DNA of 64,000 nt from Vicinamibacterales bacterium. Lineage in GTDB: Bacteria > Acidobacteriota > Vicinamibacteria > Vicinamibacterales > UBA2999. This document shows positions 134-50,772 of this stretch, piece after piece (the stretch's first letter is position 1; every line of letters begins with the position of its first letter). The stretch lies in the NCBI GenBank assembly GCA_050246635.1, contig JBFWVR010000002.1:373938-437937 (forward strand), in the 5' to 3' direction. The translations under genes and the position numbers were made by a program. The notes under the pieces were generated by a model. It was not told the origin of the DNA. It worked only from the letters and a program-made list of their open reading frames with translations, and did not search any database.

Positions 134-939
134 GCCGCGGGCTCCAGCGAGAGCAGCGACAGCGCCGCATCCCGTGCGTCACGCGCCGACAGGTACTCCT
201 CGATCATGCCGGTCTCGAACTGCTCGTGCAGCCGGCGAACGGCCTGCGCGGAGAAGTCCTTGCGCTGGTACAGGCGTCCGCCCCCCGCCTGGGGGACGGC
301 GCGCACGCCGCCGGCGGCGTGGGCCACGGCGGCGGCGACGAGGACGTCGGCCGCCGCCGTGATGGCCTTGTTCCCGATCTCGTGCGGGCCGTCACCCGTG
401 GCGATCGCCGGGCGCGCGTGCGCGATCATCGGCCCGGTGTCGATGCCGGCGTCGAGGTAGTGAATCGTGGCGCCGACGTACTCGGGCTCGCGGTTCACGA
501 GCGGCCAGAAGTTGGTGCCGGCGCCCCGGTAGTACGGCGAGAGGCCGAGGTGCAGGTTGATGATCCGGCCGGCAAAGCGGTCGATGATGGCCTGGCGGAG
601 CAGCCCCGTCCCGAACACGAGCACGACGTCGGGCGCCAGCGCCGCCATGCGGTCGATCTCGGCAGGATCGTTGATGCAGCCCGGCGCCCCGGTGCGGACC
701 ACGGCCCCGGCGGGCAGGCGCAGGTCTGCATCGGCGCCGAACGCCGCGGCCTCCGCCCGATCGCGCGCGTCGAAGTGCGCGGCGATCACGCGGTGGTCCT
801 CGTCCGATCGCGCGTAACGTGCGGGCACGAACGACTTCTCCTCGCGCCAGACCCCGGCCAGATCGAGCCCCGCCGCCACCCGGTTGGCCACGTGGTGATG
901 CCGGAGGAAGGTGCTCGTGAGGAGGATCACCCGCGTCAT
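130..939 (-). CDS. formyltransferase (Fmt/PurN fold), probable sugar N-formyltransferase
   Basis: Part of ORF 130..1161. I moved the start to ATG 939-937 (MTRVILLTS...), which overlaps the upstream stop by 1 nt; the residues before it are R/G/A-rich. IINLHLGLSPYYRG and YLDAGIDTGPMI match the formyltransferase N-x-H...RG and Asp-loop core. Confidence 0.8.
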   Translation of the reverse strand: MTRVILLTSTFLRHHHVANRVAAGLDLAGVWREEKSFVPARYARSDEDHRVIAAHFDARDRAEAAAFGADADLRLPAGAVVRTGAPGCINDPAEIDRMAALAPDVVLVFGTGLLRQAIIDRFAGRIINLHLGLSPYYRGAGTNFWPLVNREPEYVGATIHYLDAGIDTGPMIAHARPAIATGDGPHEIGNKAITAAADVLVAAAVAHAAGGVRAVPQAGGGRLYQRKDFSAQAVRRLHEQFETGMIEEYLSARDARDAALSLLSLEPAA

Positions 940-2684
940 CACTGCCTCGGGGCCTGCCCGATCATCGTCCGCAGCTTGTTCATGACGGCCGCCGCGAGGC
1001 GCTCGCGCCGCTCGCGGGACTGCCGCACCCGCTTCTCGCGCCAGCGCGCGGCCTTGGCCTTCTCCTTGGCGCGGCGCTCCATCGCCTTCTGGAACCGCTC
1101 GCGCGCGACGCGGCGCGCCCGGTCGGCCTGCGCCGTCCAGTACTGCCGCCGCTTCATCCATCGATGGGCGCGAATCCCGGCGGCGCGCGCCCGCTCCTCC
1201 CGCGCCTCCAGCGGGTCCCAGAGGAGCCGGCGCGTGAGGCGGCCCCGATAGGCGCGCCGCGCAAGCGTGAGGCCGGCGCGGGCCGCGGCTCCGGCCTCGC
1301 GGTCGTCGGCCGGCTGCGCCGGACGTGCCGCGAGGCGCTCGATGGCGGCGACCAGCCGGGGTGTGGCCGCCTCCGCCAGGCCATACGGCCGGAGGAACGC
1401 CTCGACGAACCGGGCACTGCGGCCGGCGTGCCCGGCCGGGTCGGCCAGGACCTCACCGAGCTGGCGTTGGTGCGCGTCCAGCGACCGGGTCGCGTACAAC
1501 AAGCCGCCGCCGACGTTCAGGAGGTAGGGGAAGTGGAGCGTGCCCTCCTGGTTCTCGTGGAACTCGTCCAGCAGCACGGTCAGCACCGGCCGCCCCGCAA
1601 TCGCAGCCTCGAGGAAGGCGGAGGTGTTGAGGCCGACGACCGCGGCGGCGTGGCTGAGCGAATCGAAGTAGTCCGCCTTGGCCTCGGCATCGATGGGGTT
1701 CCGTCCCCAGAGTACGACCGGCCCGAGGCCATCGAGGCTGACCTCGTCCCATTCCTTCAGGCGCGAGGGGTGTGGCCGCACGAGCACCGGGACGTCACGG
1801 AGGGCCGGGTCACCGCTGTTGCGCAGGCCCTCGAGCCACCGCCGGACGAACCGCGCCTCGGACGGGCTGCCGCGGAAGAGCGCGGAGCAGACGTAGAGGA
1901 CGAACCGCGGCGCGGCCGGCAGCCCGACGTGCGCGCAGAACGCCTCGTGCCCGCGCGAGGGCGTGCGATCGAACCACTGGTCGAAGCACTGCGCCCCGGT
2001 GACCTCCACGGCCCCTGGCGGCACCCCGTGCAGCGTCACCGCCTCGTCGCGCTGCGTCTCGTTCCAGACGGCGATGACGTCGGGCACCCATCGGATGAGC
2101 GCCTTGCTCGACAGGTTGTCCCAGCTCCACACGCCGAAGAGCGTGCGGAAGCCGAGCGCCCGCGCGCTGCGCAGGTAGTCGAGCTCGGGCGAGCCGAGGC
2201 CGATGAGGGGCGTGAGCATCACGACGTCCGGCTGCCGTTGCGCCAGGAACGCGTCCACGGCCGGCACCCGCGGGAGGGTGCGCTCGATCTCTCGCAGGCC
2301 GGCCGTGAGGGCGCGCCGGGCGGGCGCCGTTCCCATGCCCGGCAGGGCCGTCAGCCAGAGCATCACGCGCGGCGTGCGCTCCCGGGCGCGGCTGACCAGG
2401 CGCGGGGCGGTCCGGTAGGCCGGCGCCAGGTAGCGGACCCAGTCGAGCGCGAGCCGGATCTTCTCGGTCAGCGTCTCCGACTCGCTGACCGGCCGGCCCG
2501 GCGCCCAGCTGACGCGCAATGCGGGGAACTCGGCCTGCCAGCGGGCCACCATCGCGGCGCCGCCGACCGCGTCTTCCTGGAGCGCCGCCACCTCCACGTC
2601 CTGTCCGTCCTGCAACAGGCGGCGCACGACGCTCTCGTAGTTGCGGAGCGCGGCGAAGTGCCGGGCGACGACCAGCAGGCGCAT
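939..2684 (-). CDS. unassigned GT-B-like paralog family, copy P1 (single domain plus basic helical tail)
   Basis: 581-aa ORF. Motifs present: LDWVRYLAPAY, SWDNLSSKA, VWNETQRDEAVTLHGVP, VLVRPHPS, VVGLNTSAFLEAAIAGRPV, NQEGTLHFPYLL. The C-terminal ~95 aa are R/K/E/A-rich (…ERRAKEKAKAARWREKRVRQSRERRERL…). Confidence 0.85.
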   Translation of the reverse strand: MRLLVVARHFAALRNYESVVRRLLQDGQDVEVAALQEDAVGGAAMVARWQAEFPALRVSWAPGRPVSESETLTEKIRLALDWVRYLAPAYRTAPRLVSRARERTPRVMLWLTALPGMGTAPARRALTAGLREIERTLPRVPAVDAFLAQRQPDVVMLTPLIGLGSPELDYLRSARALGFRTLFGVWSWDNLSSKALIRWVPDVIAVWNETQRDEAVTLHGVPPGAVEVTGAQCFDQWFDRTPSRGHEAFCAHVGLPAAPRFVLYVCSALFRGSPSEARFVRRWLEGLRNSGDPALRDVPVLVRPHPSRLKEWDEVSLDGLGPVVLWGRNPIDAEAKADYFDSLSHAAAVVGLNTSAFLEAAIAGRPVLTVLLDEFHENQEGTLHFPYLLNVGGGLLYATRSLDAHQRQLGEVLADPAGHAGRSARFVEAFLRPYGLAEAATPRLVAAIERLAARPAQPADDREAGAAARAGLTLARRAYRGRLTRRLLWDPLEAREERARAAGIRAHRWMKRRQYWTAQADRARRVARERFQKAMERRAKEKAKAARWREKRVRQSRERRERLAAAVMNKLRTMIGQAPRQ

Positions 2685-2690: not shown

Positions 2691-4925
2691 TCAGTCTCCA
2701 CGCCTGAACTCCGCGTACACCGGCGCATCCGACTTGTCGCGGTCGACGCGGTCGACGAGGGTGAACCCCGCCCGCTGGAGCAGCCCGGTCGCCTCGTTCT
2801 CCAGTTCGCGGTCCAGTTCCACCAGCAGCGCCGTGAGCGAGGGCGCCGCCAGCGTGTGGGCCGCGCCGCGCAGCACCTCGAGCTCGGCGCCGTCCACATC
2901 GAGCTTGATCGCCGTGGGCGGCGGGAGCCTGTAGGCGCCAATCAGGTCGTCGAGCCGCGTCCCGAGCACGGGCTGCTCGTACTTGCCCTGCGACCGCGAC
3001 AACGACTCGCGCGACTCGAGCGCCCGCATCGCATGCCGGCTCTGCCCCGGCGACAGGTTGCGGTACTTGAAGGCCGCGAGCCCGGTGGTCGACCACAGCG
3101 GCAGCTGCACCGGGACGATGCGCTGCTGGCACCCGTTCAGGACGATGTTGTCGCAGAGGTGCGCGAAGGTGGCATACCCCGGCTCGACCGCGACGACCGT
3201 CGCAAGCGGCTCGCGCTTCGCGGCGATCAGCGAGAACGCGCCGACATTGGCGCCGATGTCGTAGAGCACGGTGTCCGGCCGCACGATGCGTTCGATCCAG
3301 TCGACCGTCCAGGGCTCCTTCGCGCAGGGCCGGGCGCGCCAGTTCCGCTCCTCGGGTGACGTCACGCGGATCTGGACCGGCACGGCCTCGTAATCGAGCA
3401 TCACGGTGTCCCCCGCGGTCGTCTCTCCGGCCGGGGGAGCCGCCTCGGCCGCGGGCCGCTCGGCGGCCGCGCGTGCGGCCGCGCGCCTGGCATCACGCGC
3501 GCGCTGGCGTTCGGCCAGCTTGAGGGTCTGCTCGATCTCGTGGACCGCGACCTTGGTCGCGCGCACGTTGAGGCCGTGCGGCCGGATGAAGCTGCGGACG
3601 AAGTCGCGCTGCGCCTCGACGTCGACCTCCCCGCGCACCGCCGCCGCCAGGGCCGCGCAGTGCGTGGCCAGGTCGGGCGACGCCTGCACGAAGCCGCCGT
3701 GCTCCCGCAGCAGGTAGTGGAAGTGCAGCGTGCCACTCTGCCCGTCCGCCAGCTCGTCCGGCGCCGTGATGGTCAGCACCGGCCGCCCCACGATGGCCGC
3801 CTCGAGCTCGGCGCTCGTGTTCAGGCCGACGGCCGCCTCGGCGTGGTGGAGGCACTCGTACAGGAACTGCGCCCCCGAGAACGTCGTGCGCACGACCACG
3901 GCCCGCTCGGCGTCGAACGGACGGGTGACGCGCACCCGCACCTCGCCGTGCCGCGCCTTCCACGCCAGCCGCTCGCCCTCGTCGCCCCACGCGCGGTTCA
4001 GGTCGGGATGGGCCTTCACGAGGATGTTCGCCCGCTCGAGCCCCGGCGTGCGGCGGACCGCGTCGATCCAGCCCGCGATGAAGCGGTCCTCGTGCTCCTC
4101 CGCGATGAACTTCGACGACGCCAGGTAGGTGATCGTCGGCGCGGACGGGTCGAACCCGAAGAGGCGGTCGTACTCCGCCCGCGACAGCGACGGCCGGAGG
4201 CGGAAGAAGTCGTCGAACCGCGGCGCGCCGGTCACCGCAATCCGGTCGCGGGGCACGCCGTGCAGGTCGACGGCCTCACGCGCCTGGAGCTCGTTCCACA
4301 GGAGCAGCCGGTCGGGCACCTCGTGCATGAGGCCCTTGGTCGAGAGGTTGTCCCAGCTGAAGAGGAGCAACGCAATCGGGATGTCCAGCTCGCGGCAGGC
4401 CTTGACGTAGTCGGCCTGGCTCGACCCGATGTCGACGAGGGGTGAGATCAGGACGAGGTCGGGCGCCTCGCTCTGGATCCACTTCTGGATGCCGCGATCC
4501 GCCGGGATGGCGTTCCCCAGCCTGCGGATGGTGTCCTGCAACCGTTCGATCTCGGCCGGCGTGAGGCCGAGGCCGAGCTCCGCGACGCCCGGCACCGGCT
4601 CCCGCGAGCCATGCGAGACGGTCCGGGCCAGCTTGTCGAACGCGCGGGCGCGCAGCTTGCGTGCGCCGGCGAACGGCGGGGTGAGGTACCGCAGGTAGTC
4701 GCCGGACCGTCGCAGCAGGCTCACGTAGTCGCGCCACTCGTCGTGGCGCTTGCTGTCGCAGGTCGTCGCGGAGACGAGCGGCTGGTCCTGCAGGGCCTCG
4801 GGCAGCTCGAGCACGCCGTCCTGCGCCGCAATCCGCACGCCGTGCCCGCGGGCCGCGAGCGTCGCCACCACGCTGGTGAAGTGGCGCATGTAGCCCATCT
4901 GCTTGATGACGAACAGGATCCGCAT
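2691..4925 (-). CDS. paralog family copy P2 fused via a charged linker to a C-terminal FkbM-family methyltransferase domain
   Basis: 744-aa ORF. The N-terminal ~465 aa carry FSWDNLSTKG, LWNELQAREAVDLHGVP, VKAHP, AVGLNTSAELEAAIVGRPV and GQSGTLHFHYLL. The linker is ERQRARDARRAAARAAAERPAAEAA (nt ~3408-3524). The C-terminus carries VLYDIGANVGAFSL…VVAVEP…IKLDVDGAELEVLRG, which is FkbM/Methyltransf_21-like. Confidence 0.85.
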   Translation of the reverse strand: MRILFVIKQMGYMRHFTSVVATLAARGHGVRIAAQDGVLELPEALQDQPLVSATTCDSKRHDEWRDYVSLLRRSGDYLRYLTPPFAGARKLRARAFDKLARTVSHGSREPVPGVAELGLGLTPAEIERLQDTIRRLGNAIPADRGIQKWIQSEAPDLVLISPLVDIGSSQADYVKACRELDIPIALLLFSWDNLSTKGLMHEVPDRLLLWNELQAREAVDLHGVPRDRIAVTGAPRFDDFFRLRPSLSRAEYDRLFGFDPSAPTITYLASSKFIAEEHEDRFIAGWIDAVRRTPGLERANILVKAHPDLNRAWGDEGERLAWKARHGEVRVRVTRPFDAERAVVVRTTFSGAQFLYECLHHAEAAVGLNTSAELEAAIVGRPVLTITAPDELADGQSGTLHFHYLLREHGGFVQASPDLATHCAALAAAVRGEVDVEAQRDFVRSFIRPHGLNVRATKVAVHEIEQTLKLAERQRARDARRAAARAAAERPAAEAAPPAGETTAGDTVMLDYEAVPVQIRVTSPEERNWRARPCAKEPWTVDWIERIVRPDTVLYDIGANVGAFSLIAAKREPLATVVAVEPGYATFAHLCDNIVLNGCQQRIVPVQLPLWSTTGLAAFKYRNLSPGQSRHAMRALESRESLSRSQGKYEQPVLGTRLDDLIGAYRLPPPTAIKLDVDGAELEVLRGAAHTLAAPSLTALLVELDRELENEATGLLQRAGFTLVDRVDRDKSDAPVYAEFRRGD

Positions 4926-5954: not shown

Positions 5955-8900
5955 CGCGTGTCTCCGGATCCCGAGCGGGCCTGCAGCAGGGCGCCAAGCC
6001 GTCCGCGCGCCTGGCGTGCGCGGCGCGCCGCGCCCCGACCCAGCCGCCTCATGCCGCCGCCGACCCGCGCCGAGCCTTTCGAGGCGGCCTTCTGCAGTCG
6101 GCGCGGGGCCGCGCGTTTTGACAGTTCCTTGAGCCCTTTCGACACCCGCTTGCGCTGGTGGTGGGCCCACAGCCGGCGTTCCTTGCGGGCGGCCGGTCCG
6201 GCCAGCCGGGCGAGCTGGCCGCCCAGCCACACGGGGCCGGCCAGGGCGAGCCGCAGCAGCCGCGCGCCCACGCCCGCTCGGGCAGGTGCGGCTGCCGGAC
6301 GCGCCGCGAGCTCCGCCAGCGTACCCGCCAGGATCGGCACACATGGCCGCTCGAGCCCCCGTGGCCGGATGAACGCCTCGACGAACCGCCGGGTCTCGTC
6401 CCTGGCGGACTCCGGATCGGCCAGCGACGCGGCGAGCTGGGCGAGGTGCTCCTCGAACGTGCGGCCGACGCGGAGGAAACCGCCGTTCTCGGGCAGGAGG
6501 TACCGGAAGTGGACGGTGCCCTCCTGCGTGCCGGCGAAGTCAGGGGTCAGGATCGCGTGGACCGGGCGTCCGACGATCGCCGCCTCGATCATCGCGCTCG
6601 TGTTCACGCCGACGACGGCGCCGCAGTGGTAGAGCGAGTCGAAGAAGTCGGCGCGGTTCTGGTCGTCGGTCGGGTTGTGCTGGCCCTTCGGGAAGATCGC
6701 CGCGGGCCCGAGGTCCGAGAGATCGGCCTCGCGCCACTGCGCCGCGTTGTAGGGGTGCGGGCGGACGAGCACGTTGGCCTCGCGCAGCCGCGCATCGGGC
6801 GACCGGCGCAGCGCCTCGATCCAGCGGCGCACGAACGGCAGCTCGCTCTGCTCGCCCGAGATGAAGAACGAGGACCCGGTGAACAGCACGATCGGCCGTG
6901 CGGGATCGAGGCCGAGCATCGCCGCGAAGGCCTCGCGTGTCCGGCTGGGCTCGCGGTCGAACCAGCGGTCGAAGGGCTGGGCGCCGGTGACCGCGATCCG
7001 CGACGGTTCCACGCCGTGCATGTCGGCGGCCTCGCGGGCCTGGTGGCCGTTCCACACGGTCACCAGATCCGGCTGGACGCGCAGCAGGCCCTTGTTCGTC
7101 AGGTTGTCCCAGCTGGCGATGCACGCGCAGGTGGGCACCCCGAGCGCCGCCGCCGCGCGCACGAGGTCCACCTGCGGCGAGGCCGCCTCGACGAGGGGCG
7201 TGACGCAGAGGGCGTCGGGCTCGTGCTTGTGGACGAACCCGAGCACCGCGTCCGAGACCGGGACGGCACGCTCGAGGCCCGCCAGCCCCCCGAGCAGGGC
7301 ACGGACGAGCGGGCGCGGCAGGCCGGGCACCAGGTCGAGCCACTGCAGCGCCCGCGGCAGGCACTTGCGCTTCATGCGCGCGCGCAGCACCGGCACGTCG
7401 CGCATCTGCGGATCGAGGTACCGCACGAAGTCCATCGTCCCGCGGACCGCGTCGGCGAAACCGGACCAGCGGTCCCCCCGCGGCGGCACGATGCCCGCGA
7501 AGCGGATGCCGTCCCCGCCGCCGGCGAACTGCTCGATGCGGACGGGCTTCCCCTCGCGCTGCGCGTTGACCGCCACCAGCACCTCGGTGCCGCCGGCCGC
7601 GAGGTATCGCAGCGTCTGGTCGTAGAACCGGAGGTACTCCGGTGACGACATGACGAACAGCACACGCCGCGCGCGCGGCTTCTCGCCATCGGCCGTCGGC
7701 CGGCGCGCCGGACGCCGTGCCGCGGCCTGTGCCGCGACGGCGACCGGATACAGGATCCGCCGGACCAGGCCGGCGAGGGCCGGGGCGCGAGGCGCCCGGC
7801 GCGGCGCCGTGGGCAACGACTCCACGACGTCGGCGAAGACCCGGCAGGCCGGCACGTCCAGGCCCTGCGGCCGCACGAACGATCCGATGAACGCCCGCCG
7901 CCCCTGCGTCCCCTGTTCGGGGCTCGCCAGGAACGCGGAGAGCTGCTCGCAGTGCTGCGCCACCGAGTCGGCGACGGTCAGCAGGCCACCGCTGACGCCC
8001 TTCAGATGCTGGAAGTGCAGCGTGCCTTCCTGGGTGGCCGAGAACTCCGCGGCACGGATGCTGTAGACCGGGCGGCCGACGATGCCCGACTCGATGAGCG
8101 CGCTCGTGTTCACGCCGACGACGGCCGCGCTGTAGAACATCGAGTGGTAGTAGTCGTTGCGCGCCTCCTGGTCGACCGGGTTGGCGCCCTCACGCGGCCA
8201 GATCGCCACGTCCGGATAGCCGGAGAGATCGACCGACCGCCACTGCTCCGCGTTCTGGGGGTGCGGACGGATCAGCAGCGCGGCCTCACGCAGTGCCGGG
8301 TCGGCGCTCCCGCGGATGCCCTCGATCCACGACCGCACGAAGCCGACCTCATACGGGGCGATGAACGGCGAGGAGCAGAGGTACAGCAGGATCGGGCGAT
8401 CGGCCGGCAGGCCCACCCGCGCGCAGAACGCCGCACGATCCAGCGACGGCTCGGCGTCAAACCAGTGATCGTAGGCCGTCGCGCCCGTGACGCGCACGAG
8501 GCCCGGCGCCACGCCGTGGAAGCGTCCGGCCTCCACGCGCTGCGCCTCGTTCCAGACAGTGACGGCGTCCGGGATCTCGTGGATGAGCCCCTTCGTCGTC
8601 AGGTGATCCCAGCTCCCGACCGCCAGCATCGTCGGCAGGTGGCGGCGCTTCGCGCCACGGACATAGTCCACCTGTTGCGAGCCGAAGTATAGCAGCGGCG
8701 TCACGACGACGACGTCGGGCGCGACCTCGTCCAGCACCTGGTCCACATGGGGGCTGGGCGGCAGCGAACGCTCGCACATGCGGATGGCCCGGGCCAGGAC
8801 GGCGCGAATGGCCCCGACGCGGGCGAGCGGCAGCTTCGCCAGCGGCGCGGCAAACGCCGGCACCTGTTCCGACGCGCGGCCGCGAAGCGCCGGCGCGGCG

Positions 8901-9175
8901 TCGTACTGCGGATCCAGGTACCGCCAGTAGTCGAGCGACAGGCGGAAGCCGGTTCCCAGCGCGCGCCAGACGTGGGTCTTGGGTGGGGCGACGACGCTCC
9001 ACGTGAAGGCGTCCGGGTAGGCCGCGGCCAGCCGCTCCACGGTGCGCATGCCGCCGAGGCTGTCGCGGCGATCCGCGACCAGGTGGATGCGGTGACCACG
9101 CGCCGCCAGCTCGCGCAGCCCGCTCTCGAAGTTGCGCAGGAAGCCGAAGTGCCCGGCGGCGAACAGGATCTTCAT
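5951..9175 (-). CDS. paralog family, tandem double-domain protein (copies P3a+P3b) with basic C-terminal tail
   Basis: 1074-aa ORF. The full motif set occurs twice: GSWDHLTTKG…LIRPHPQN…VVGVNTSALIESGIVGRPV…TQEGTLHFQHL, then ASWDNLTNKG…VLVRPHPYN…VVGVNTSAMIEAAIVGRPV…TQEGTVHFRYLL. A basic tail follows (…HHQRKRVSKGLKELSKRAAPRRLQKAASKG…). Confidence 0.85.
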   Translation of the reverse strand: MKILFAAGHFGFLRNFESGLRELAARGHRIHLVADRRDSLGGMRTVERLAAAYPDAFTWSVVAPPKTHVWRALGTGFRLSLDYWRYLDPQYDAAPALRGRASEQVPAFAAPLAKLPLARVGAIRAVLARAIRMCERSLPPSPHVDQVLDEVAPDVVVVTPLLYFGSQQVDYVRGAKRRHLPTMLAVGSWDHLTTKGLIHEIPDAVTVWNEAQRVEAGRFHGVAPGLVRVTGATAYDHWFDAEPSLDRAAFCARVGLPADRPILLYLCSSPFIAPYEVGFVRSWIEGIRGSADPALREAALLIRPHPQNAEQWRSVDLSGYPDVAIWPREGANPVDQEARNDYYHSMFYSAAVVGVNTSALIESGIVGRPVYSIRAAEFSATQEGTLHFQHLKGVSGGLLTVADSVAQHCEQLSAFLASPEQGTQGRRAFIGSFVRPQGLDVPACRVFADVVESLPTAPRRAPRAPALAGLVRRILYPVAVAAQAAARRPARRPTADGEKPRARRVLFVMSSPEYLRFYDQTLRYLAAGGTEVLVAVNAQREGKPVRIEQFAGGGDGIRFAGIVPPRGDRWSGFADAVRGTMDFVRYLDPQMRDVPVLRARMKRKCLPRALQWLDLVPGLPRPLVRALLGGLAGLERAVPVSDAVLGFVHKHEPDALCVTPLVEAASPQVDLVRAAAALGVPTCACIASWDNLTNKGLLRVQPDLVTVWNGHQAREAADMHGVEPSRIAVTGAQPFDRWFDREPSRTREAFAAMLGLDPARPIVLFTGSSFFISGEQSELPFVRRWIEALRRSPDARLREANVLVRPHPYNAAQWREADLSDLGPAAIFPKGQHNPTDDQNRADFFDSLYHCGAVVGVNTSAMIEAAIVGRPVHAILTPDFAGTQEGTVHFRYLLPENGGFLRVGRTFEEHLAQLAASLADPESARDETRRFVEAFIRPRGLERPCVPILAGTLAELAARPAAAPARAGVGARLLRLALAGPVWLGGQLARLAGPAARKERRLWAHHQRKRVSKGLKELSKRAAPRRLQKAASKGSARVGGGMRRLGRGAARRARQARGRLGALLQARSGSGDTR

Positions 9176-34877: not shown

Positions 34878-34882
34878 GACGT

Positions 34883-34911: not shown

Positions 34912-34954
34912 TGCGGGCAATTCCGGGCCGCCCCCCTTGAATCCCCCCGTCCGC

Positions 34955-37029: not shown

Positions 37030-37066
37030 CACGCCAGTCGAGTCCTGCGCTGGCGGCCCCGGGCGC

Positions 37067-37072
37067 TACAAT
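37067..37072 (+). promoter_or_regulatory. candidate -10 element TACAAT upstream of 37099
   Basis: gggcgcTACAATggcg lies in the 69-nt gap between CDSs. It is followed by a GAGGA Shine-Dalgarno at 37087-37091 and GTG 37099. Confidence 0.3.
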
Positions 37073-37098
37073 GGCGCCTGCTCGAACGAGGACACCCC

Positions 37099-37929: not shown

Positions 37930-37942
37930 TCAGGGAGGCGGC

Positions 37943-38656
37943 ATGAGCCCCGCGTGGCCCTGGCGACGCGCAGGGCGGGATGATCGCGGCGTCGAGGCGC
38001 TGGCCGCCGAGCAGGCGGCGCTCGGCCGTGAGCTTCGCGAGCTCACCGCCGGCATCGACCGGCTGGCGCGCGTGGCTGACGGCGTGCGACTGCAGACCGA
38101 GCGCCTCGCCGCCGTACAGGCGGAGGAGCTATCGGCCGCTGCGGCGCTCGAACCGCTCGCACCGCTCTTCGCGCTGGACCGCATCGCGGTCCACGTGCGG
38201 GAGGCGGTCGCCAGCAGCGCGGACCACGCGGGCTCCCTGGAGGTGCCGGCGCTGTTTCCGCCGGAGACCGCCATCGCCCTGGCCGCGGCGGTGCCGCCGG
38301 CCCTGTTCTTCGACGAGGGGCCGGCCGGCGGTCGTCGAATCGACCTCCCGCTCCGCCTGGCGCCCCTTGCCTCGATGGTGGCGTGGGAGTTCGTGCTCGA
38401 GCAGGTCGTCACGCCGATTCTCGTGCCGGTGCTCCTGCAGCGCCTCGCCGTGCCAGCGGAGGTGGATCTCATGGACGCGCACCTCCTGCTCGCGGATCCG
38501 GACACGCCGACGGCGCGCGCGGACCACGACGGGGCCGGCTGGACCGTCGACATCGAACTCGTCGCGGACGGCTGCAGGCTCACCGCCCGCCAAGGTGGTC
38601 GCGCAGCGGCGCCGGTCTCTGGCCCGGTCCTCACCTTCCGGCTGGCGCCGCGCTGA
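37943..38656 (+). CDS. hypothetical protein (coiled-coil-like N-terminus)
   Basis: 237-aa ORF preceded by GGGAGG (37933-37938). Its composition is protein-like, unlike the S/R/A-rich antisense ORF 37930..38634. I recognise no motif. Confidence 0.55.
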   Translation: MSPAWPWRRAGRDDRGVEALAAEQAALGRELRELTAGIDRLARVADGVRLQTERLAAVQAEELSAAAALEPLAPLFALDRIAVHVREAVASSADHAGSLEVPALFPPETAIALAAAVPPALFFDEGPAGGRRIDLPLRLAPLASMVAWEFVLEQVVTPILVPVLLQRLAVPAEVDLMDAHLLLADPDTPTARADHDGAGWTVDIELVADGCRLTARQGGRAAAPVSGPVLTFRLAPR

Positions 38657-41600: not shown

Positions 41601-41756
41601 GTGCGCGAGCGTACGCAACTCGGGACTGGACCGCGGGTCCTGCGCCTCGACCAGGACGTGGACATCGTCGCCCTTTGCGGACGCGAGCCGGATGATGTTG
41701 GAGAGCGCCACGGCGGACTCACAGTCCGCCGCGAAGGCAAGGAGACGGCGCGCCAC
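38664..41756 (-). CDS. motif-degenerate tandem double-domain member of the paralog family (D2) with hydrophobic/basic C-terminus
   Basis: 1030-aa ORF with a GTG start 3 nt after the upstream stop. Family-like blocks are present (…FVRAARVLGIPTLGVATSWADGAASGVLHDAPDCICLWNTAQRRAL… and …RPDVVVVLPALDLPTAVDSGLEQVALMQAARAAGIPTVASADLLDAGV…) but RPHP is replaced by SASPGD/RPAPGK. C-terminus: LPMLGATVLGLGAVALA plus a basic tail. Confidence 0.7.
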   Translation of the reverse strand: MARRLLAFAADCESAVALSNIIRLASAKGDDVHVLVEAQDPRSSPELRTLAHECESLTLGRVPRLAGPFRALSIALRGCVDVLLSPAARRPGRIETAPRLARWVAASFIVRHDRTRLAALAAAEALERQLPVPPVLLRLLEDLRPEAILLAPVSPPGGGLTDFVRAARVLGIPTLGVATSWADGAASGVLHDAPDCICLWNTAQRRALMRAWGSRLRHTLVVGSIGGGHEVPAPVKTEPGQAPTVVFAGTEDGDPDREVAAFEHWVRRVRSHGSPALAGARVVVSASPGDVEAWRGVPDRHAGVEVVARRVGDDTARHVATVLDGATILVALDPRLMTEAAWRGMPVVALVLPDLPEAGERLETFVRCAATAAWPAMTRSWEAHVERLAAIAENRDGELDRTRAAASAWARPHGPRLVPARVIVRTVLGDLVEAAHAPEPRPVPGPARRLLLQVLAAAARLSGAAAGARRGRAQSLNVLVAAPSGGQLEAYAPLVRVLQKERHNVVVVFTAGREQPLEAFDRAGDFVDAGTAGVVPRRTGMWAEAAGALLGAAAAMRFLDPRLGPREARWRTRVQRTLLPPGLRWIDRFYGSPAWVRRRLARLVAAMASAVPVSAPARALIRRERPDVVVVLPALDLPTAVDSGLEQVALMQAARAAGIPTVASADLLDAGVNPAVVLAQPEDWLVWNPATASEAESLRVSSRSRVHRTGAILADYASGAGADLLSTEEFREFLGLEAGRPFAFFAGSPGLSAEPALEPLLLREYLAALRGSKLPALRDLTVVVRPAPGKTKPWQAADFSNLGDVVLMPRDYDRSGALDLVLLRETIAAAAVVIGANPLALALAQLTGTHCIVFVASDSSRDHPGTRPIDAFSSLGGGPAASAQDVAELVRQTREALGRRRSPEDRRIHKWAAARFLVAGEGPTLASARCIEAAARAETLPPPRAAVALLRLPMLGATVLGLGAVALARHQIFRGAGKGAQRVARRLSRRLGNQGRAIGHAIGRAPAMVRRAGRRVRYNLGVLRRGLRAR

Positions 41757-43729: not shown

Positions 43730-45213
43730 CGGGCCGCCTCCGGCGAGGCCAGCGCGAGCCCGGGCACGAGGGCCTCGGGACGGCGGGGGCCGGCGGTCAT
43801 CGCCGCGGGCGCGCCGACCATGCTCTCGAGCAGATCGGCGACGACGTCGGAGGCGGGCGTGTCCACGCCGCAGGGGCGCAGGAACCACCGGACGAAGCCG
43901 CGCCGGCCCTCCCGCTGGACGTCGGCGCCCTCCCGCACGATCCGCCAGACCCGCTCGGCGATCTCGTCGTGTGTCGCGCTCACCTCGAGGAACTGCCCCT
44001 TGAGGAGGTGCCGGAAGTGGCCGGTGCGTCCCTGCGACGGATAGTACTCGTCGGCGACGATCGTGAGGCACGGTCGATCAGCCACGGCGGCTTCGAGGAA
44101 GGCGGTCGTGTTGAGGCCGATGGTGCCGGCCGCCAGCGCGAGCTGATCGAAGTAGGCCTGCCACGCCTCCGGCGTGTCTGCCTGGTCGCCCTCGCGCGGA
44201 TACACGACCACGCCACGGCGGGCGTAGCCGTTCCACGTGTCCGCGTTCGTGGGATGCGGCCGCACGACGATCGTTGGCGCCGCGTCCCCGAAGCGACGGT
44301 CGAACGCGTCGGCGATCCGCGTCACGAGCGGCGTCTCGTCCGGGGCCAGGGTGCGCGATGAGCAGAGGAACACCACGTATGGCCGGTCGTCCGGGCAGCC
44401 CATGAGCGCGCAGAGCGCCTCACGCGTCGCGGAGGTCGAGAAGGTGAAGAACCGATCGAGGTGCGGCGCGCCCGTGATACGCACGAGCTCCGGCGGGATG
44501 TCGTGCAGGGTGACCGCCTCCTCGGCAAGCGGCTCGTTCCACACCACGAAGACGTCCGGCAGCACGTGCACGGTGCCCTTGCTGGTGAGGTTGTCCCAGC
44601 TGTTGACGTACCCCACAGTGGGGATCCCGAGGCAGCGCGCGGCGTGGAGGTAGTCGGCCTCGACCGGGTTCTTGGGCCAGATGGTCGGCGAGACGAGCAC
44701 CACGTCGGGTGCCGCCTCCCGCAGGAGGTCGACGACGGTGGGGCTTGGCGGGCTGACGCTCTCGAGCGCGCGCCAGGCCTGCAACGTGCCGCGCCGCCAG
44801 ATCGTCGCGCGGGCGGCGCGCGACCGCACGAAGCGCTGCATGCGCGGCGGCATCTCGTGCTCGAGGGCCTCGGTCACCCGCTCTGGCGACGGATGCCAGG
44901 GACGCATGTAGGTGCCTCGGCTGAGCACCTGCCGGCCCATCATGAGCGCCTCGTACCACGGCTCGGGCGGATCCGGCCGGTAGCCCACCTCGACGTCGGC
45001 AATCGCCTCCTGCGCCGCGCTCAGCCCGCGCCCCAGGTAGGTCATCTTCTTCCGGCCGACCTTCTTCTGCTCGACACGCGCCATGAGCCCGGGATCGGTC
45101 ATCTTCGTCCCGTGCAGCACCGCGACGCGGTGGCCGCGACGGTGGAGTTCCCGCAGCACCGTATCCAGGTTGCGGAAGAAGTTCACGTGCTGCATCACGA
45201 AGAGGGCCTTCAT
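43726..45213 (-). CDS. paralog family copy P8 (subfamily 2, single domain)
   Basis: 495-aa ORF: MKALFVMQHVNFFRNLDTVLRELHRRGH…, NSWDNLTSKG, VWNEPLAEEAVTLHDIP, IVVRPHPTN, TIGLNTTAFLEAAVADRPC, SQGRTGHFRHLL. Confidence 0.85.
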   Translation of the reverse strand: MKALFVMQHVNFFRNLDTVLRELHRRGHRVAVLHGTKMTDPGLMARVEQKKVGRKKMTYLGRGLSAAQEAIADVEVGYRPDPPEPWYEALMMGRQVLSRGTYMRPWHPSPERVTEALEHEMPPRMQRFVRSRAARATIWRRGTLQAWRALESVSPPSPTVVDLLREAAPDVVLVSPTIWPKNPVEADYLHAARCLGIPTVGYVNSWDNLTSKGTVHVLPDVFVVWNEPLAEEAVTLHDIPPELVRITGAPHLDRFFTFSTSATREALCALMGCPDDRPYVVFLCSSRTLAPDETPLVTRIADAFDRRFGDAAPTIVVRPHPTNADTWNGYARRGVVVYPREGDQADTPEAWQAYFDQLALAAGTIGLNTTAFLEAAVADRPCLTIVADEYYPSQGRTGHFRHLLKGQFLEVSATHDEIAERVWRIVREGADVQREGRRGFVRWFLRPCGVDTPASDVVADLLESMVGAPAAMTAGPRRPEALVPGLALASPEAAR

Positions 45214-46384: not shown

Positions 46385-46390
46385 GGGATC

Positions 46391-48898
46391 CTACACCGCC
46401 TCAGCCCCCCCGGTCCGTTCGGCGCGAGGCCTGCCTGCCACCGCCGGTGCCCGACGCCGCAGGAGCCCCGGCAGCGAGGTCCGGCCCCGCACCAGCCGCG
46501 ACGAAGCCGCCGTCGGGGAGGCCCGGTGTCTCCCCGTACGCGCGCAGATGCGCGTCAGCGCCCGCGCGGCCAACGCGACCACGGGGCGTGGCAGCCGCGT
46601 GGCCGCGTCACGCGCCGCCGCCGGCCGGGACGCGGCGTCACGCACGGCCGCCAGCACGAGGTCGGCGGATGGGTAGTCAGGGCCCAGGAAGTGCGCGGCC
46701 GCCCACCCTGCGTCTGCCCTCGCCGGCACGTGCCCGCCGTCGAGGGCGTCCGCGACGTGGCGGACCAGCTCGGCGGCGCTCGAGGCCGCGCGCGCCGGAC
46801 CACCACCCGCGTGGGTGAAGTCATCGACTGGCGCGATGCCTGCCGGCCCCGTCTCCGTCGCCACGAGGCCGACGGCCGGACGGCCGCTGAGGTGCGCCAG
46901 GGTCAACGCCAGTGGATCGGCGCTCACGACAACGGCCGCGCCGCGGATCATCTCCCTGAGCAGCACGCTGTCCAGGCTGCCGGATCGGTCGTAGCGGGTC
47001 GGGCAGAGGATCACATCCCCCAGCCCCGTGAAGTCGGCGCCGCGCCACGCCCGCGCCGCCGATGGCGCGGGGCGGATCAGCACGAGCAGGTCGCGCAGGC
47101 CACGACGGCGACTGCCGCGCAACGCCGTCAGCCACTCGCGCACGAACGGCGCCTCCGGCGGCCGGCCGCCAAGCCCGCCTGCGCCCGCAAACAGCACGAA
47201 TGGACGACCGGGCGCGATGCCGAGCAGGCGCCGGAACTCGGCATCGGTGATCGTCTCCGCGGAATCATCCTCGGCGTACTCGTGGAGCGGCGCACCGGTG
47301 ACGGCGAACACCGTGCCGCGGCCGGTCCACAGCCGGGCCGGCTTCTGCTGCGAGCGCGTCCACAAGAGCGCGACGTCCGGGCGCAGGTGCAGCGCGACCG
47401 GGTTCACGCCCGAATCGAGACAGCCGGCCGCGGCGACGACCGGCACACGCGCGGCGGCCGCGGCGGCCGCCAGCGACGCTTGTTCGGGCGCCGTGTCGAC
47501 GGCCATCGGGAGGTCGAGCGCCGGCAGCAGCAACAGGACGTCCGGCCGCACCTCCTGGACCAGGGACGAGGCGCCGGCGTCGGGCGGCACCGCCCGCGCC
47601 AGGCGCGCCGTCCAGCGGGCCAGGCGGGCGCACGCCGCGTGCCGGCCATGCCAACGGTCCACCGCCTGGAGCTCGGGTGGCAGGATCCACCGCAGCATGC
47701 GGCGCCGCCACCGGGACGCCTGCGGGGCGAGTTCGCCATCGAGCAGCGCGGTCGCTGCCGCCAGGCGAAGCAGCCGGTCGCTCACCGGTCCCCAGCCATC
47801 GTCGCGCCGCGGCACCACGCCGACAGGAATGACACCGCGCAGGTCATCGAGGCGGTCGAACAGCTCGAGGGGCTGGCCGGAGCGGGCGGTGAACGCCACG
47901 AACACCGTGTGGCCGTCGGACCGCAGCCGCCGGAGCCAGGCGCCATACTGTTCGAGGTACGCGACCGATGGCGTGGCGACGAGCACGGCCAGTCGCGCCC
48001 CTCGAGGCGCCGGCAGGTGCCGGACGCCACGGTCCACCCGGCGCGCCAGACCTGACATCAGCGCGATGGCGCGGGCAGCGGATCGGGTCGGCTCACGGTG
48101 CGCCCGCGGCGGCTGCCGCGCGGCCAGCACCGCGGGCAGCACGGTCTGCACCAGCGCGCGCCCGGGGGCCGGCGCCGCCGGTCCGTGCGTGACCCCGCCG
48201 CCGTCGAGCACGATCACGGATCGGGAGTCGATGCCGAGGGCGGCCACCAACAGGTCGCGATGCGCGTCGCTCCACGCGCAATGCCAGTCAGGCGCCTCGT
48301 GCGGCGTCCCGCCGGCGGCAGGTTCGTCTCCGCACGCGGGCACGGAGAGGGTCGGGATGCCGAGCACCCGCGCCGCGCGCACGTAGTCCGCCTGGGACGA
48401 GCCCGCTTCGAGGAGCGAGGTCAGGATGATCGCGGCCGGCGCCTCGGTGCGCAGGAAGTCCACGACGCCTGGGTCGAGGGGCAGCACCCGCTCGAGCGCC
48501 CGCGCGCCGCGGAGCAGACCGCGACGGACGGCGCCCCTCCGCGCACCGGGTACGTGGGCGAGGACACGGACGAGCGGCGGCACGGCCCGGAGAACGTCCT
48601 GGTGGGCGGGGGGCGGCGGCTGCGCGAGGTCGTCCAACCGCAGGACCTCTATCAGGCCGCGCAGCGTCGCGGCCAGCGCCCGGTGTGGAGACAACCCTCG
48701 CGGTTGGGACGCATGACTGAGCGACGGATACTCGCGTTCGAGGGCACGAAGTGGCTCGGAAGCCGCGACGTCATTCCGGGCCAGGGCGAGACGTACGTGG
48801 GCCCCCGATGCCAGCAGCGCGGGCAACATGTCGCCAGGCCCCAGCACGGCCGCCGAGTCGGGAGCCAGAACCAGGATGCGCTCACCCATGCCGCTCAC
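46391..48898 (-). CDS. motif-degenerate member of the paralog family (D3): N-terminal half-domain plus one degenerate full domain, basic tail
   Basis: 835-aa ORF. GTG 48898 is in a GTGA overlap (tcac 48895-48898); ATG 48889 is an alternative. Family-like blocks are …SSQADYVRAARVLGIPTLSVPACGDEP… and …RPDVLLLLPALDLPMAVDTAPEQASL…LIRPAPSAARAW…. The canonical motifs are lost. Confidence 0.65.
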   Translation of the reverse strand: MSGMGERILVLAPDSAAVLGPGDMLPALLASGAHVRLALARNDVAASEPLRALEREYPSLSHASQPRGLSPHRALAATLRGLIEVLRLDDLAQPPPPAHQDVLRAVPPLVRVLAHVPGARRGAVRRGLLRGARALERVLPLDPGVVDFLRTEAPAAIILTSLLEAGSSQADYVRAARVLGIPTLSVPACGDEPAAGGTPHEAPDWHCAWSDAHRDLLVAALGIDSRSVIVLDGGGVTHGPAAPAPGRALVQTVLPAVLAARQPPRAHREPTRSAARAIALMSGLARRVDRGVRHLPAPRGARLAVLVATPSVAYLEQYGAWLRRLRSDGHTVFVAFTARSGQPLELFDRLDDLRGVIPVGVVPRRDDGWGPVSDRLLRLAAATALLDGELAPQASRWRRRMLRWILPPELQAVDRWHGRHAACARLARWTARLARAVPPDAGASSLVQEVRPDVLLLLPALDLPMAVDTAPEQASLAAAAAAARVPVVAAAGCLDSGVNPVALHLRPDVALLWTRSQQKPARLWTGRGTVFAVTGAPLHEYAEDDSAETITDAEFRRLLGIAPGRPFVLFAGAGGLGGRPPEAPFVREWLTALRGSRRRGLRDLLVLIRPAPSAARAWRGADFTGLGDVILCPTRYDRSGSLDSVLLREMIRGAAVVVSADPLALTLAHLSGRPAVGLVATETGPAGIAPVDDFTHAGGGPARAASSAAELVRHVADALDGGHVPARADAGWAAAHFLGPDYPSADLVLAAVRDAASRPAAARDAATRLPRPVVALAARALTRICARTGRHRASPTAASSRLVRGRTSLPGLLRRRAPAVAGRPRAERTGGAEAV

Positions 48899-50772
48899 AC
48901 CTCACCGGCATCCGGCGGAGCAAGGCCCTCCCAGCGCACCGCACGTCCGGCGAGCCGGACAGCCCGGGCCGGCCGCGGGGCCTCGGACGTGCGCTCCGGA
49001 CGCCGCTGCGCATGCGGGACCTCCGCCACGCGCGAGGCCGCGGCCGCCAGGCGCGCGGCCTGCACCTGCCGCCGGGCGGCGCGCACCTGCTCGGCCGCCC
49101 GTTCACGCGCCGCTCGTTCCCGGGCGGCGGCCGCGCGCTGGGCGTCACGCAGGGCCCTGACCGGCGCCAGGCGGGCGTTACGCGCCTCGAGCTTCCGCGC
49201 ACGCGCCGCCGCCCGCGCGGCCATCGTCAGCGCCTGCCGGGCGTCGTCGCGAGCGGCCCGCGAGAACTCGTCCGGCGTCGCGGCGCCGGCCCGCCGCTCC
49301 ACGCGCCAGCGCCACGCCCCGACGAGCGCCCGCAGCCCCCTTCCGCGTCGCGGCGCCGCCGCGGCTGCGGGACGCCTGGCCAGGTTCTCGACGAGGTCGG
49401 CCACCACCGCGGCCGCGGGACGATCGATGCCGCAGGGCCGCAGGAATTGCCGGACGAAACGGCGACGTCCCTCGCGCCGCTCGTCCGCGCCGTCGCCGAC
49501 GATGTGTCCGACACGCGCGGCGACCTCATCCCAGGTGGTGCAGGTCTCGAGGAACCCGCCCGCCAGCAGGTGACGGAAGTGCCCGGTGAATCCCTGTGAC
49601 CCCGTGTACTTCTCCGCCACGATCGTGAGGCACGGACGATCGGCCACCGCCGCCTCGAGGAAGGCGGTCGTGTTGAGCCCGACCGCGCAGGCCGCCAGGG
49701 ACAGCTGATCGAAGTAGGCCTGCCAGGCGTCCGGCGTGTCGGCTTGATCGCCCTGGCCCGGGTAGACGACGACCCCGCGGCGCGAGTAGCGTGCCCAGAT
49801 CTCGGCATTCGTCGGATGGGGCCGCACGACGATTGCCGGCGCCGCCTCGCCAAACCGGCGGGCGAACGCCTCCGCCAACGCGGTCACCAGCGGCGTCTCG
49901 TCGGGGGCGAGCGTACGCGACGAACAGAGGAAGACGACGTAGGGCCGGCCGTCCGGGCACCCCATGGCCGCGCAGAGCGCCTCGCGCGTCGTCGAGGTCG
50001 AGAGGGCAAAGAAGCAATCGAGGTGTGGCGCGCCGGTGACGCGAATGGCGTCGCGCGGCACGTCGTGCAGGCCGGCGGCCTCCTCGGCCATGGGTTCGTT
50101 CCACACGACGAAGGCGTCCGGCAGGACGTGCACCGTGCCCTTGCTCGTCAGGTTGTCCCAGCTGTTGACGTAGCCGATCGTCGGGACGCCGAGCGCGTGC
50201 GCCGCGTGCAGGTAGTCGGCCTCGACGGGATCCCTCGGCCAGATCACGGGCGAGACGAGCACGACGTCGGGTGCGTGGCGCCGCAGCGTGTCGACGACCG
50301 TCGGGCAGGCGGGCCCCGCCGCCTCGATGCTGCGCCACGCGCGGAGGGCCCAGGGCCGCCAGAGCACCCGCCGCCAAAGCGGCGAGCGCACGAAGCGTCG
50401 CATGGCGGGAGACATCTGCTCCTCGAGGCCCTCGGTGACACGCGCGGGGGACGGATGCCACGGCCGCATGTAGATGCCGCGGCTGAGCACCTGGCGCCAC
50501 ATCATCAACCGTTCGTGCCAGGCGCCGGGCGGGTCGGGACGGTAGGCCACATCGACGTCGGGCAACGCCTGCCGGGCCGCCTGCAGCCCGCGCCCGAGGT
50601 TGGTCACCTTCTTCGTGCGCCGCGGCAGGTCACGCCGATCCCGCAGGTTCGGCTCCTTGATCGCGGTGCCGTGCAACACCACGATCTGGTGCCCGCGCGC
50701 ATGCAGCTCGCGCAGCACGGTGTCGAGGTTGCGGAAGAAGTTCACGTGCTGCAGGACGAAGAGCACCTTCAT
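48895..50772 (-). CDS. paralog family copy P9 (subfamily 2) with ~125-aa A/R/E-rich C-terminal tail
   Basis: Part of ORF 48895..50997. ATG 50772 (MKVLFVLQHVNFFRNLDTVLRELHARGH…) is in an ATGA overlap (tcat 50769-50772). Motifs: NSWDNLTSKG, IVVRPHPTN, AVGLNTTAFLEAAVADRPC, SQGFTGHFRHLL. Tail: …ARKLEARNARLAPVRALRDAQRAAAARERAARERAAEQVRAARRQVQAARL…. Confidence 0.85.
   Translation of the reverse strand: MKVLFVLQHVNFFRNLDTVLRELHARGHQIVVLHGTAIKEPNLRDRRDLPRRTKKVTNLGRGLQAARQALPDVDVAYRPDPPGAWHERLMMWRQVLSRGIYMRPWHPSPARVTEGLEEQMSPAMRRFVRSPLWRRVLWRPWALRAWRSIEAAGPACPTVVDTLRRHAPDVVLVSPVIWPRDPVEADYLHAAHALGVPTIGYVNSWDNLTSKGTVHVLPDAFVVWNEPMAEEAAGLHDVPRDAIRVTGAPHLDCFFALSTSTTREALCAAMGCPDGRPYVVFLCSSRTLAPDETPLVTALAEAFARRFGEAAPAIVVRPHPTNAEIWARYSRRGVVVYPGQGDQADTPDAWQAYFDQLSLAACAVGLNTTAFLEAAVADRPCLTIVAEKYTGSQGFTGHFRHLLAGGFLETCTTWDEVAARVGHIVGDGADERREGRRRFVRQFLRPCGIDRPAAAVVADLVENLARRPAAAAAPRRGRGLRALVGAWRWRVERRAGAATPDEFSRAARDDARQALTMAARAAARARKLEARNARLAPVRALRDAQRAAAARERAARERAAEQVRAARRQVQAARLAAAASRVAEVPHAQRRPERTSEAPRPARAVRLAGRAVRWEGLAPPDAGEV

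Follow-up and report, generated by a model that had tools for sequence, protein, structure and literature searches.

What does a bacterium do with a dozen genes, gathered in one glycan locus, that all carry the same domain? The question arises from a 64,000-nucleotide stretch (hereafter the window) of a Vicinamibacterales bacterium of the Acidobacteriota (assembly GCA_050246635.1, contig JBFWVR010000002.1, positions 373,938 to 437,937). We use "X" as a working name for the repeated domain of ~460 amino acids (aa), and number its residues by its sequence profile (e.g., D207, H320). The window holds ten intact and six degenerate copies of X around a Wzm/Wzt-type ABC transporter, and the intact copies are probably cytoplasmic Leloir-type glycosyltransferases (GTs) that build a methylated deoxyhexose glycan for export through that transporter.

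The initial annotation, read from the letters of the window alone, had claimed twelve coding sequences (CDSs) with about 16 copies of one ~450-aa domain, two of them in CDS 5951-9175, and on all three counts it was right. The twelve CDSs are intact open reading frames (ORFs) on the minus strand with a single terminal stop each, and in a window of 70-76% G+C, their G+C content at third codon positions (GC3) of 0.87-0.95 is that of real genes of this genome. In BLASTP, nine canonical proteins match one another across ~450 aa (E = 1e-40 to 0), and three degenerate proteins match the canonical ones with two copies per protein (E = 1e-9 to 1e-65). A hidden Markov model (HMM) of the ten canonical domains found 15.5 copies in the window and no other match: ten full canonical copies, five that are full but diverged, and a single N-terminal half. 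The canonical copies, both of the tandem pair being full, are the following:

1305..2684, minus strand: X in CDS 939-2684, followed by a 126-aa charged tail (66% A/R/E/K/Q)
3498..4925, minus strand: X in CDS 2691-4925, with K-A-H-P; C-terminal FkbM methyltransferase domain at 2808-3260
7781..9175, minus strand: X in CDS 5951-9175, first of two intact tandem copies
6278..7669, minus strand: X in CDS 5951-9175, second tandem copy
11913..13268, minus strand: X in CDS 10944-13268
15436..16815, minus strand: X in CDS 14191-16815, followed by a charged linker of ~110 aa
17936..19321, minus strand: X in CDS 16832-19321, then a charged linker (73% A/R/E/K/Q), then a C-terminal FkbM methyltransferase domain at 17006-17449
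33346..34758, minus strand: X of subfamily A, single-domain protein 33286-34758, directly upstream of the GT2 gene 32027-33427 and a CDP-glucose cassette
43789..45213, minus strand: X of subfamily A, single-domain protein 43726-45213 (modeled with AlphaFold2), directly upstream of a GT2 gene (42482 to ~43730)
49354..50772, minus strand: X of subfamily A in CDS 48895-50772, then a charged tail of 155 aa

An alignment of these ten copies contains 45 invariant columns, among them S205-W206-D207, W225-N226, H320-P321, G366-x-N368-T369, Q394/T397/H399-F400 and R446-P447-x-G449, and the ten motifs that had been listed for the domain are all positionally conserved in it, in the same order. We scored 16 key residues (S205, W206, D207, K212, W225, N226, E232, R318, H320, P321, N368, T369, E374, Q394, H399 and R446). 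These and R14 are kept in all ten copies, the sole variant being R318, which is Lys in 2691-4925; the HP context is R-P-H-P, or K-A-H-P in that protein. None of the canonical X proteins has a predicted transmembrane segment.

Structural modeling points to a glycosyltransferase-like fold. The AlphaFold2 model of 43726-45213 (predicted local distance difference test score [pLDDT] of 81.7, predicted template modeling score of 0.84) comprises two β/α/β halves, whose order of strands and helices fits two Rossmann halves, with a helical insert of ~80 residues in the N-domain. Foldseek returned 225 matches in the PDB at E <= 1e-3, of which the top 50 were nearly all GT-B enzymes, and dozens of GT-B structures were matched with a probability of 1.0 at an identity of merely 10-14%. 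UDP-GlcNAc 2-epimerases ranked first (1.5e-11), followed by MshA, CalG1/3 and TagF (3l7j; 8e-9). The two-halved model and these matches together indicate a canonical GT-B fold for X, the layout that had been expected from its motifs.

Within that fold, X appears to stand apart. Neither Pfam, searched with all twelve X proteins, nor NCBIfam, searched with eight, returned a family above its cut-off for X, and PDB sequence searches with X profiles of 10 and 66 sequences returned no related chain (matches to an OmpR regulator, protein A and ribosomal protein uL13 were short and spurious). In these three databases, no sequence search gave a full-length match at E < 1e-20 to a characterized family. 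Library scans of 66 diverse members of the X family, with Pfam matches counted at E <= 1, yielded subthreshold matches to Glyco_transf_4 (35/66), Glyphos_transf (PF04464; 17/66) and Epimerase_2 (PF02350; 13/66, best 3.7e-6, and no match for the window copies). The best named similarity was to NCBIfam model NF046086 (BFO_1060 family glycosyltransferase), matched by 63 of the 66 members (best E = 4.6e-15), and to TIGR04396, matched by 29. The best alignment to NF046086 is colinear over profile positions 40-297, that of another relative spans positions 102-345 of 365, and the scores are 16-56 bits (16-35 for window copies, 48-56 for the best relatives) against a cut-off of 200 bits. BFO_1060 proteins are pseudaminic- and legionaminic-acid transferases of Tannerella forsythia, assigned by genetic linkage to the transfer of these acids, and are TagB-like with the HP and acidic motifs of bacterial sialyltransferases (PMC5420450). 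The acidic motif of X is S-W-D-N as opposed to D/E-D/E-G in the BFO_1060 family, a possible correspondence between motifs and not between residues aligned position by position.

Comparisons with hhalign, in which the 66-sequence X profile was set against single-sequence templates and sensitivity was therefore limited, were all non-significant: 276 colinear columns with E. coli WecB (PDVVLV, TG..D, H.NP and G..EA..G.PV; probability 1.4%), 15 with the TagF-like protein of E. coli CFT073 (0.8%), 33 with KpsS (29%) and 78 with KpsC (0.4%). The motifs common to X and these templates form a clan-level set, namely PDVVLV, TG..D, HP and G..(S/T)..EA..G.P. The KpsC/KpsS family (Capsule_synth, GT107) gave no Pfam match for the canonical window proteins or for the 66 relatives. 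From the lack of a family-level match and the presence of subthreshold clan matches, we take X to be a separate family that is a remote homologue of the BFO_1060/TIGR04396 group and only distantly related to the HP-motif branch of GT-B enzymes. The suggestion of the initial annotation that X is a new family thus holds in that no cut-off was reached and the TagF-like, KpsC and KpsS comparisons were non-significant, but it has to be qualified by the remote BFO_1060/TIGR04396 homology and the subthreshold links to TagF-like proteins and 2-epimerases. The loose resemblance to DUF354 (PF04007) that it had suggested was not found, either at E <= 1 in nine canonical proteins and among the families listed for 66 relatives or at E <= 0.1 in the three degenerate proteins. 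Judged against Pfam, NCBIfam and the PDB, X is a large uncharacterized sequence family inside a known fold; since the assembly strategy is also known, it is not categorically new. In the literature, we found no paper with the SWDNL motif in a relevant context, and none describing the X family among work on Vicinamibacter glycan loci or new GTs.

The family is large and widely spread. Among 1.84 billion representative proteins searched with HMMER, it comprises 8,259 clusters (50% identity) at E <= 1e-3 and 2,346 at E <= 1e-30, and many of the matched proteins hold two to four X stretches; in every source, family proteins are labeled "hypothetical." The motif SWDNL[TS][SNT]KG occurs in at least 596 stretches of GTDB contigs (one genome per species), and the best 78 of these loci (given L-numbers) served as our set of related loci. 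All 78 come from metagenome-assembled genomes (MAGs), spread over Acidobacteriota, Actinomycetota, Chloroflexota, Desulfobacterota, Nitrospirota, the candidate phyla radiation, Melainabacteria, Verrucomicrobiota, Planctomycetota and Gemmatimonadota. In other genomes, 187 of 209 X copies keep 15 or more of the 16 key residues. Two or more full X domains, and up to eight, lie within 10 kb to either side in 53 of the 78 loci, with Wzt in 40 and Wzm in 35. Six loci (L066, L068, L035, L059, L070 and L076) pack six to eight full X domains into 17-21 kb (16.6 kb in L059), and their taxa include bins of Actinomycetes, Actinomycetota, Verrucomicrobiota, Vicinamibacteraceae and Acidobacteria. An extreme copy number like that of the window is therefore a usual trait of the family and not unique to this genome. 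Five loci (L025, L029, L036, L037 and L044) carry a divergent sister subfamily that scores 127-170 bits against the X profile, reads G-W-D for S-W-D and A-S for N-T, has Q394 replaced in four of five and retains the HP motif; this subfamily might bridge X to known families.

Of the ten canonical copies, eight are matched in other genomes by orthologues (57-72% identity) that are closer than the nearest paralogue in the window (38-57%), and 43726 and 48895 alone resemble a recent pair (71%). Closer orthologues than paralogues fit specialized, non-redundant X modules. The suggestion that each copy adds a different residue or linkage can apply to the ten canonical copies, which keep the conserved and presumably catalytic and donor-binding residues, but probably not to the six degenerate ones, which have lost them:

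23870..25132, minus strand: first degenerate X of CDS 22109-25141; HP segment deleted; N368/T369, E374, Q394 and H399 lost
22475..23767, minus strand: second degenerate X of CDS 22109-25141; SWD changed to G-G-E; HP His changed to Ala
40440..41705, minus strand: first degenerate X of CDS 38664-41756; D207 changed to Ala; R-P-H changed to S-A-S
39051..40325, minus strand: second degenerate X of CDS 38664-41756; HP His changed to Ala; S205/W206, T369, E374, Q394 and H399 lost
48215..48829, minus strand: N-terminal half of a degenerate X in CDS 46391-48898; profile positions 19-225 only
46607..47986, minus strand: second, full degenerate X of CDS 46391-48898; HP His changed to Ala; NT, E and Q/H motifs lost

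Across the six, the HP His is replaced by Ala in three copies and by Ser in one, is deleted in one and falls in a region absent from the N-terminal half. T369, Q394 and H399 are gone from all of them, and N368 and E374 are each kept in one copy; the N-domain residues P169-D170 and W225 are often still present. In GT-B enzymes, the nucleotide donor is bound by the C-domain. Given the loss of the C-domain motifs, the degenerate copies are therefore probably donor-blind and inactive. Compared to the canonical genes, the three CDSs have higher G+C at first and second codon positions and lower GC3, and their proteins have more Ala, Leu, Arg and Gly and less Lys, Asn, Phe and Tyr, which suggests relaxed constraint. 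CDS 22109-25141 has syntenic orthologues in L001 and L004 that are degenerate too, and is the only one of the three with such counterparts; 38664-41756 found no close homologue besides itself among 5.8 billion clustered proteins. Such non-catalytic copies may serve as scaffolds or acceptor-binding modules, or may be decaying paralogues, and both roles fit the present data.

The intact copies are often joined to other modules. In most canonical proteins, X is followed by a segment of 95-155 residues rich in Arg, Ala, Glu and Lys (64-73% A/R/E/K/Q). In 16832-19321, the charged linker leads to an FkbM methyltransferase, and in 14191-16815 to an unassigned domain, Z; in 2691-4925, a shorter segment (~40 aa, 68% A/R/E/K/Q) leads to another FkbM methyltransferase. 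Three methyltransferase domains are thus fused to X, two of them clearly behind long charged linkers. In 10944-13268, the segment between X and a further unassigned domain, Y, is not notably charged (35% A/R/E/K/Q). The linkers are probably coiled-coil, to go by their residues, and a coiled-coil terminator architecture is known from ABC-dependent O-antigen systems (PMC11231755). The two additional domains are placed as follows:

11079..11783, minus strand: Y domain, tail of CDS 10944-13268, lacking an internal stretch of the family profile
14203..15174, minus strand: Z domain, tail of CDS 14191-16815, S-adenosylmethionine (SAM)-methyltransferase-like

Y (consensus VGPWLSEVGFELLYWIPF...TYGGLSYLAP) is without a sequence match in Pfam and the PDB. 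The AlphaFold2 model of Y, built from an alignment of database homologues (pLDDT 84), bears a weak likeness to GT9 heptosyltransferases (Foldseek E = 9e-4, template modeling score ~0.4). In the related loci, 99 Y domains occur in 37 of 78, fused or free-standing (e.g., L038:18722-19636, L049:15405-16244). Z (consensus VWEIGAGWGGFAYQFK...SFQEMT, also VWEIGAGWGG...SFQEM) has subthreshold Methyltransf_12 matches in 14 of 34 members, and 43 copies occur in 33 of 78 loci, often as separate genes.

The genes around X are those of a glycan locus served by an ABC transporter, as the initial annotation had proposed, and this context recurs in other genomes. The exporter genes sit inside the X array:

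19953..20846, minus strand: Wzm-type ABC-2 permease (PF01061), four hydrophobic segments
20839..22095, minus strand: Wzt/TagH-type ABC ATPase (PF00005); best NCBIfam matches are teichoic-acid exporters (TagH), below cut-off
20842-21333, minus strand: C-terminal extension of Wzt, ~165 aa

A nucleotide-sugar cassette (25650..32150, minus strand), the greater part of it syntenic with X genes of subfamily A in both L001 and L004, and further transferases would supply and decorate sugars, as judged by their library matches:

31257-32150, minus strand: glucose-1-phosphate cytidylyltransferase, above the NCBIfam cut-off
30028-31275, minus strand: C-methyltransferase of the cassette
28584-30173, minus strand: ORF with an epimerase/reductase domain at ~28750-29490, cassette member
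27820-28620, minus strand: rhamnosyl-O-methyltransferase type, cassette member
26828-27895, minus strand: CDP/dTDP-glucose 4,6-dehydratase-like, cassette member
25650-27752, minus strand: ORF with a methyltransferase domain at ~25700-26580, cassette member
32027..33427, minus strand: GT2, paired with X 33286-34758
13265-14194, 42482 to ~43730 and 53818-55140: other GT2 genes, from library scans
34700-35707, plus strand: FkbM methyltransferase, part of a plus-strand block (34700..38656)
35704-37029, plus strand: GT61, in the same block
37099-37929, plus strand: TylF-type O-methyltransferase, in the same block
37943-38656, plus strand: ORF of the block with no PDB sequence relative

ORF 41760-42593 has no PDB sequence relative either. 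A GDP-mannose 4,6-dehydratase and a WecE-type 4-aminotransferase, both above their NCBIfam cut-offs, are also present, and the window holds ~16 methyltransferase genes or domains (FkbM, TylF/NovP, rhamnosyl-O-, C-methyltransferase and generic SAM types). In L001, a 33286-type X is followed by GT2, glucose-1-phosphate cytidylyltransferase, C-methyltransferase, rhamnosyl-O-methyltransferase type, 4,6-dehydratase, a second methyltransferase and a pseudo-X. L004 keeps this order except for the GT2 and the second methyltransferase and so represents X plus cassette with no GT2 match; L001 also has the pair of X and GT2, and an actinomycete MAG (L002) has two such pairs. The conserved order of the cassette and the recurring pair suggest that X proteins of the 33286 type may act on the product of the CDP-glucose pathway.

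Several other genes were noted in passing. A sugar O-methyltransferase gene that the initial annotation did not list is hidden among overlapping ORFs (identified by its frame-specific GC3 of 0.91-0.96) and matches TylF/NovP/MycF/CalS11-type O-methyltransferases in the PDB (E = 1e-13). A small winged-helix ORF separates X gene 16832-19321 from wzm within what appears to be one operon. The formyltransferase at the left edge starts at 939, not 1161, where ATGA forms a stop/start overlap between it and X gene 939-2684; on a matching 3.3-kb contig (L081:1989-2936), a polysaccharide deacetylase gene follows it, past the left edge of the window. Four further genes flank the array.

130-939, minus strand: formyltransferase
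10189-10941, minus strand: sugar O-methyltransferase
~19320-19950, minus strand: winged-helix (HTH_24/MarR-like) ORF
50769-53021, minus strand: YfhO-like polytopic membrane protein, nine hydrophobic segments
55152-56072, minus strand: fatty-acid desaturase
~61450-62982, plus strand: B12-binding radical-SAM enzyme (HpnJ/P-methyltransferase-like)
~62990-63965, plus strand: UbiA-family prenyltransferase

We propose that the intact X modules are soluble or peripheral at the cytoplasmic face of the membrane, where each would add one residue or linkage to a lipid-linked glycan, beside four GT2 enzymes, one GT61 and the GT9-like Y domain. The sugars would for the most part be 6-deoxyhexoses, derived from CDP-glucose and GDP-mannose through enzymes of the locus. 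The ~16 methyltransferases, some tethered to X, would O- and C-methylate these sugars and decorate or cap the chain, and the finished polymer, likely heavily methylated and rich in 6-deoxyhexoses, would leave via the Wzm/Wzt transporter. If related GT-B enzymes are a guide, the invariant Asp of SWD might act as the catalytic base, the His of R-P-H-P could contact the donor phosphate, and G-x-N-T-S-A...E together with Q..T.HF may bind the nucleotide.

This proposal has to be weighed against several observations. Transferase activity of X is deduced from its modeled fold and its context, and the best structural matches of the model are 2-epimerases, not transferases. The locus holds ~20 GT modules, far above the need of typical ABC-dependent O-antigens, so the product may be something other than a simple repeat polymer, or there may be redundancy among several copies. 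In characterized systems, the C-terminal extension of Wzt is a carbohydrate-binding module by which the chain terminus is read; the one here matches no known carbohydrate-binding module in Pfam, and a PDB sequence search was also blank. The coiled-coil nature of the linkers is read from their composition. Lastly, no initiating polyprenyl-phosphate glycosyl-1-phosphate transferase (WecA/WbaP type) was found among the scanned ORFs; such a gene may lie outside the 64 kb, and the window may not span the whole locus.

Nor are transferases of this kind the only enzymes that X could represent. X modules might instead be TagF-like phosphotransferases that move alditol or sugar phosphate from CDP donors to form a phosphodiester, teichoic-acid-like polymer. 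PF04464 is matched below threshold by two window copies (E ~0.03) and by 17 of the 66 relatives (best 2.5e-6), two close homologues carry a precomputed match to it, TagF is among the Foldseek matches, and the invariant HP His of X resembles the second conserved His of TagF; Wzt is closest to TagH exporters, and the locus encodes a cytidylyltransferase. However, that enzyme, the only one of its kind among the scanned window ORFs, is of the glucose-1-phosphate type, and Pfam and NCBIfam scans of the window ORFs found no glycerol-3-phosphate or ribitol-5-phosphate cytidylyltransferase or reductase. The window copies score 13.5-13.9 bits against a gathering cut-off of 22.1 bits, hhalign aligned just the 15 columns, and Asp (SWD) apparently occupies the position of the catalytic His of TagF, in an approximate mapping from profile coordinates. 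Taken together, these points make a phosphotransferase unlikely.

The BFO_1060 similarity raises the prospect that X transfers ulosonic acids (Kdo or nonulosonic acids) from CMP donors, as its named relatives do. The breadth of the NF046086 and TIGR04396 matches speaks for it, as do an HP motif and a conserved acidic residue possibly equivalent to those of bacterial sialyl- and nonulosonic-acid transferases (PMC5420450). Yet the scores fall far short of the 200-bit cut-off, the ~140-aa extra N-terminal region and helical insert of X lie outside the BFO_1060 model, and neither a NeuB/PseI-type synthase nor a CMP-sugar synthetase appeared when the window ORFs were scanned with Pfam and NCBIfam; with ten active copies in a locus, and as many as eight per 21 kb elsewhere, one would have to assume poly-ulosonic chains that lack any supply pathway. 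We hold this to be the most improbable of the readings. Scarcely more credible is that X is no transferase at all, being a GT-B-fold enzyme that modifies nucleotide sugars (a 2-epimerase or hydrolyzing epimerase) or a non-catalytic binding module. The top Foldseek matches, the Epimerase_2 matches of 13 relatives and the colinear WecB alignment would fit such a role, but the WecB probability is just 1.4%, conventional tailoring enzymes of the short-chain dehydrogenase/reductase type are already encoded in the locus, and ten or more specialized paralogues in one locus, with tandem fusions and with methyltransferases attached through long linkers, typify polymerase or terminator modules and not enzymes that tailor sugar nucleotides. 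Leloir-type transfer by the intact X modules therefore stays the reading that we favor.

A broader reading may be ventured, which we consider possible but rather doubtful: that X founds a new CAZy GT family, and that X, Y and Z together form an unrecognized modular toolkit, spread over many phyla, with which uncultured bacteria of soils and sediments make heavily methylated deoxyhexose glycans. The 33286/43726/48895 subfamily, at a minimum, would then use CDP-hexoses from the syntenic CDP-glucose/C-methyl cassette, extending to CDP-sugars the cytidine-nucleotide preference of the clade of TagF and nonulosonic-acid transferases, and the tandem pseudo-X proteins would be donor-blind scaffolds holding the growing chain. 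Should the X modules prove to be transferases, thousands of "hypothetical" proteins would gain a function, a dominant yet unseen part of surface-glycan synthesis in uncultured soil bacteria would become readable, and the family would probably found a CAZy GT family of its own. The locus offers small single-domain members for biochemistry, a series of paralogues for the study of linkage specificity, conserved donor-blind pseudo-transferases and possibly glycoengineering enzymes for rare CDP-activated or methylated deoxysugars.

Among known systems, the BFO_1060/TIGR04396 family (Tanf_01245/TFUB4_00887 in Tannerella forsythia) is the one with significant remote homology to X, the best alignments being colinear across both Rossmann halves. 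Both have the HP motif, a conserved and possibly equivalent acidic residue in the N-domain, and a place in surface-glycan loci. X differs in its ~140 extra N-terminal residues, which include the ~80-aa helical insert, in the absence of nonulosonic-acid pathway genes among the scanned window ORFs, and in its arrays, which pack as many as eight domains into 21 kb next to Wzm/Wzt, where BFO_1060 is a single terminal transferase. With TagF/TagB (PF04464), X shares a two-domain GT-B-type fold, a His at the start of the C-domain (HP), a subthreshold match from the VWNE to the RPHP region and an exporter partner of the TagGH/Wzm-Wzt type; unlike them, it stays below the Pfam cut-off in all window copies, has no CDP-alditol genes among the scanned ORFs and has Asp at the presumed (approximately mapped) base position. 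The WecB/MnaA 2-epimerases (PF02350) match it in structure (Foldseek E = 1.5e-11, template modeling score ~0.5 by query and 0.65 by target) and in the order of motifs, whereas identity is 10-14% and the genomic behavior of X is multi-copy, fused and polymerase-like.

In its assembly strategy, the locus most resembles WbdA/WbdD of E. coli O9a, WbbB of Klebsiella O12 and ORF6 of Klebsiella O7. As in these, there are tandem GT modules within one polypeptide, GT and methyltransferase modules split by long charged, coiled-coil-like segments, a Wzm/Wzt transporter whose Wzt has a C-terminal extension, and methylation that is likely terminal or decorating. The coiled-coil ruler and the carbohydrate binding by Wzt belong to the WbdA/WbdD-type systems, to which the X locus is likened by its gene content. 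The GT modules of those systems belong to GT4, GT2, GT99, GT102 and GT103, to none of which X has family-level homology, and with ~20 GT and ~16 methyltransferase modules, the X locus exceeds them several-fold.

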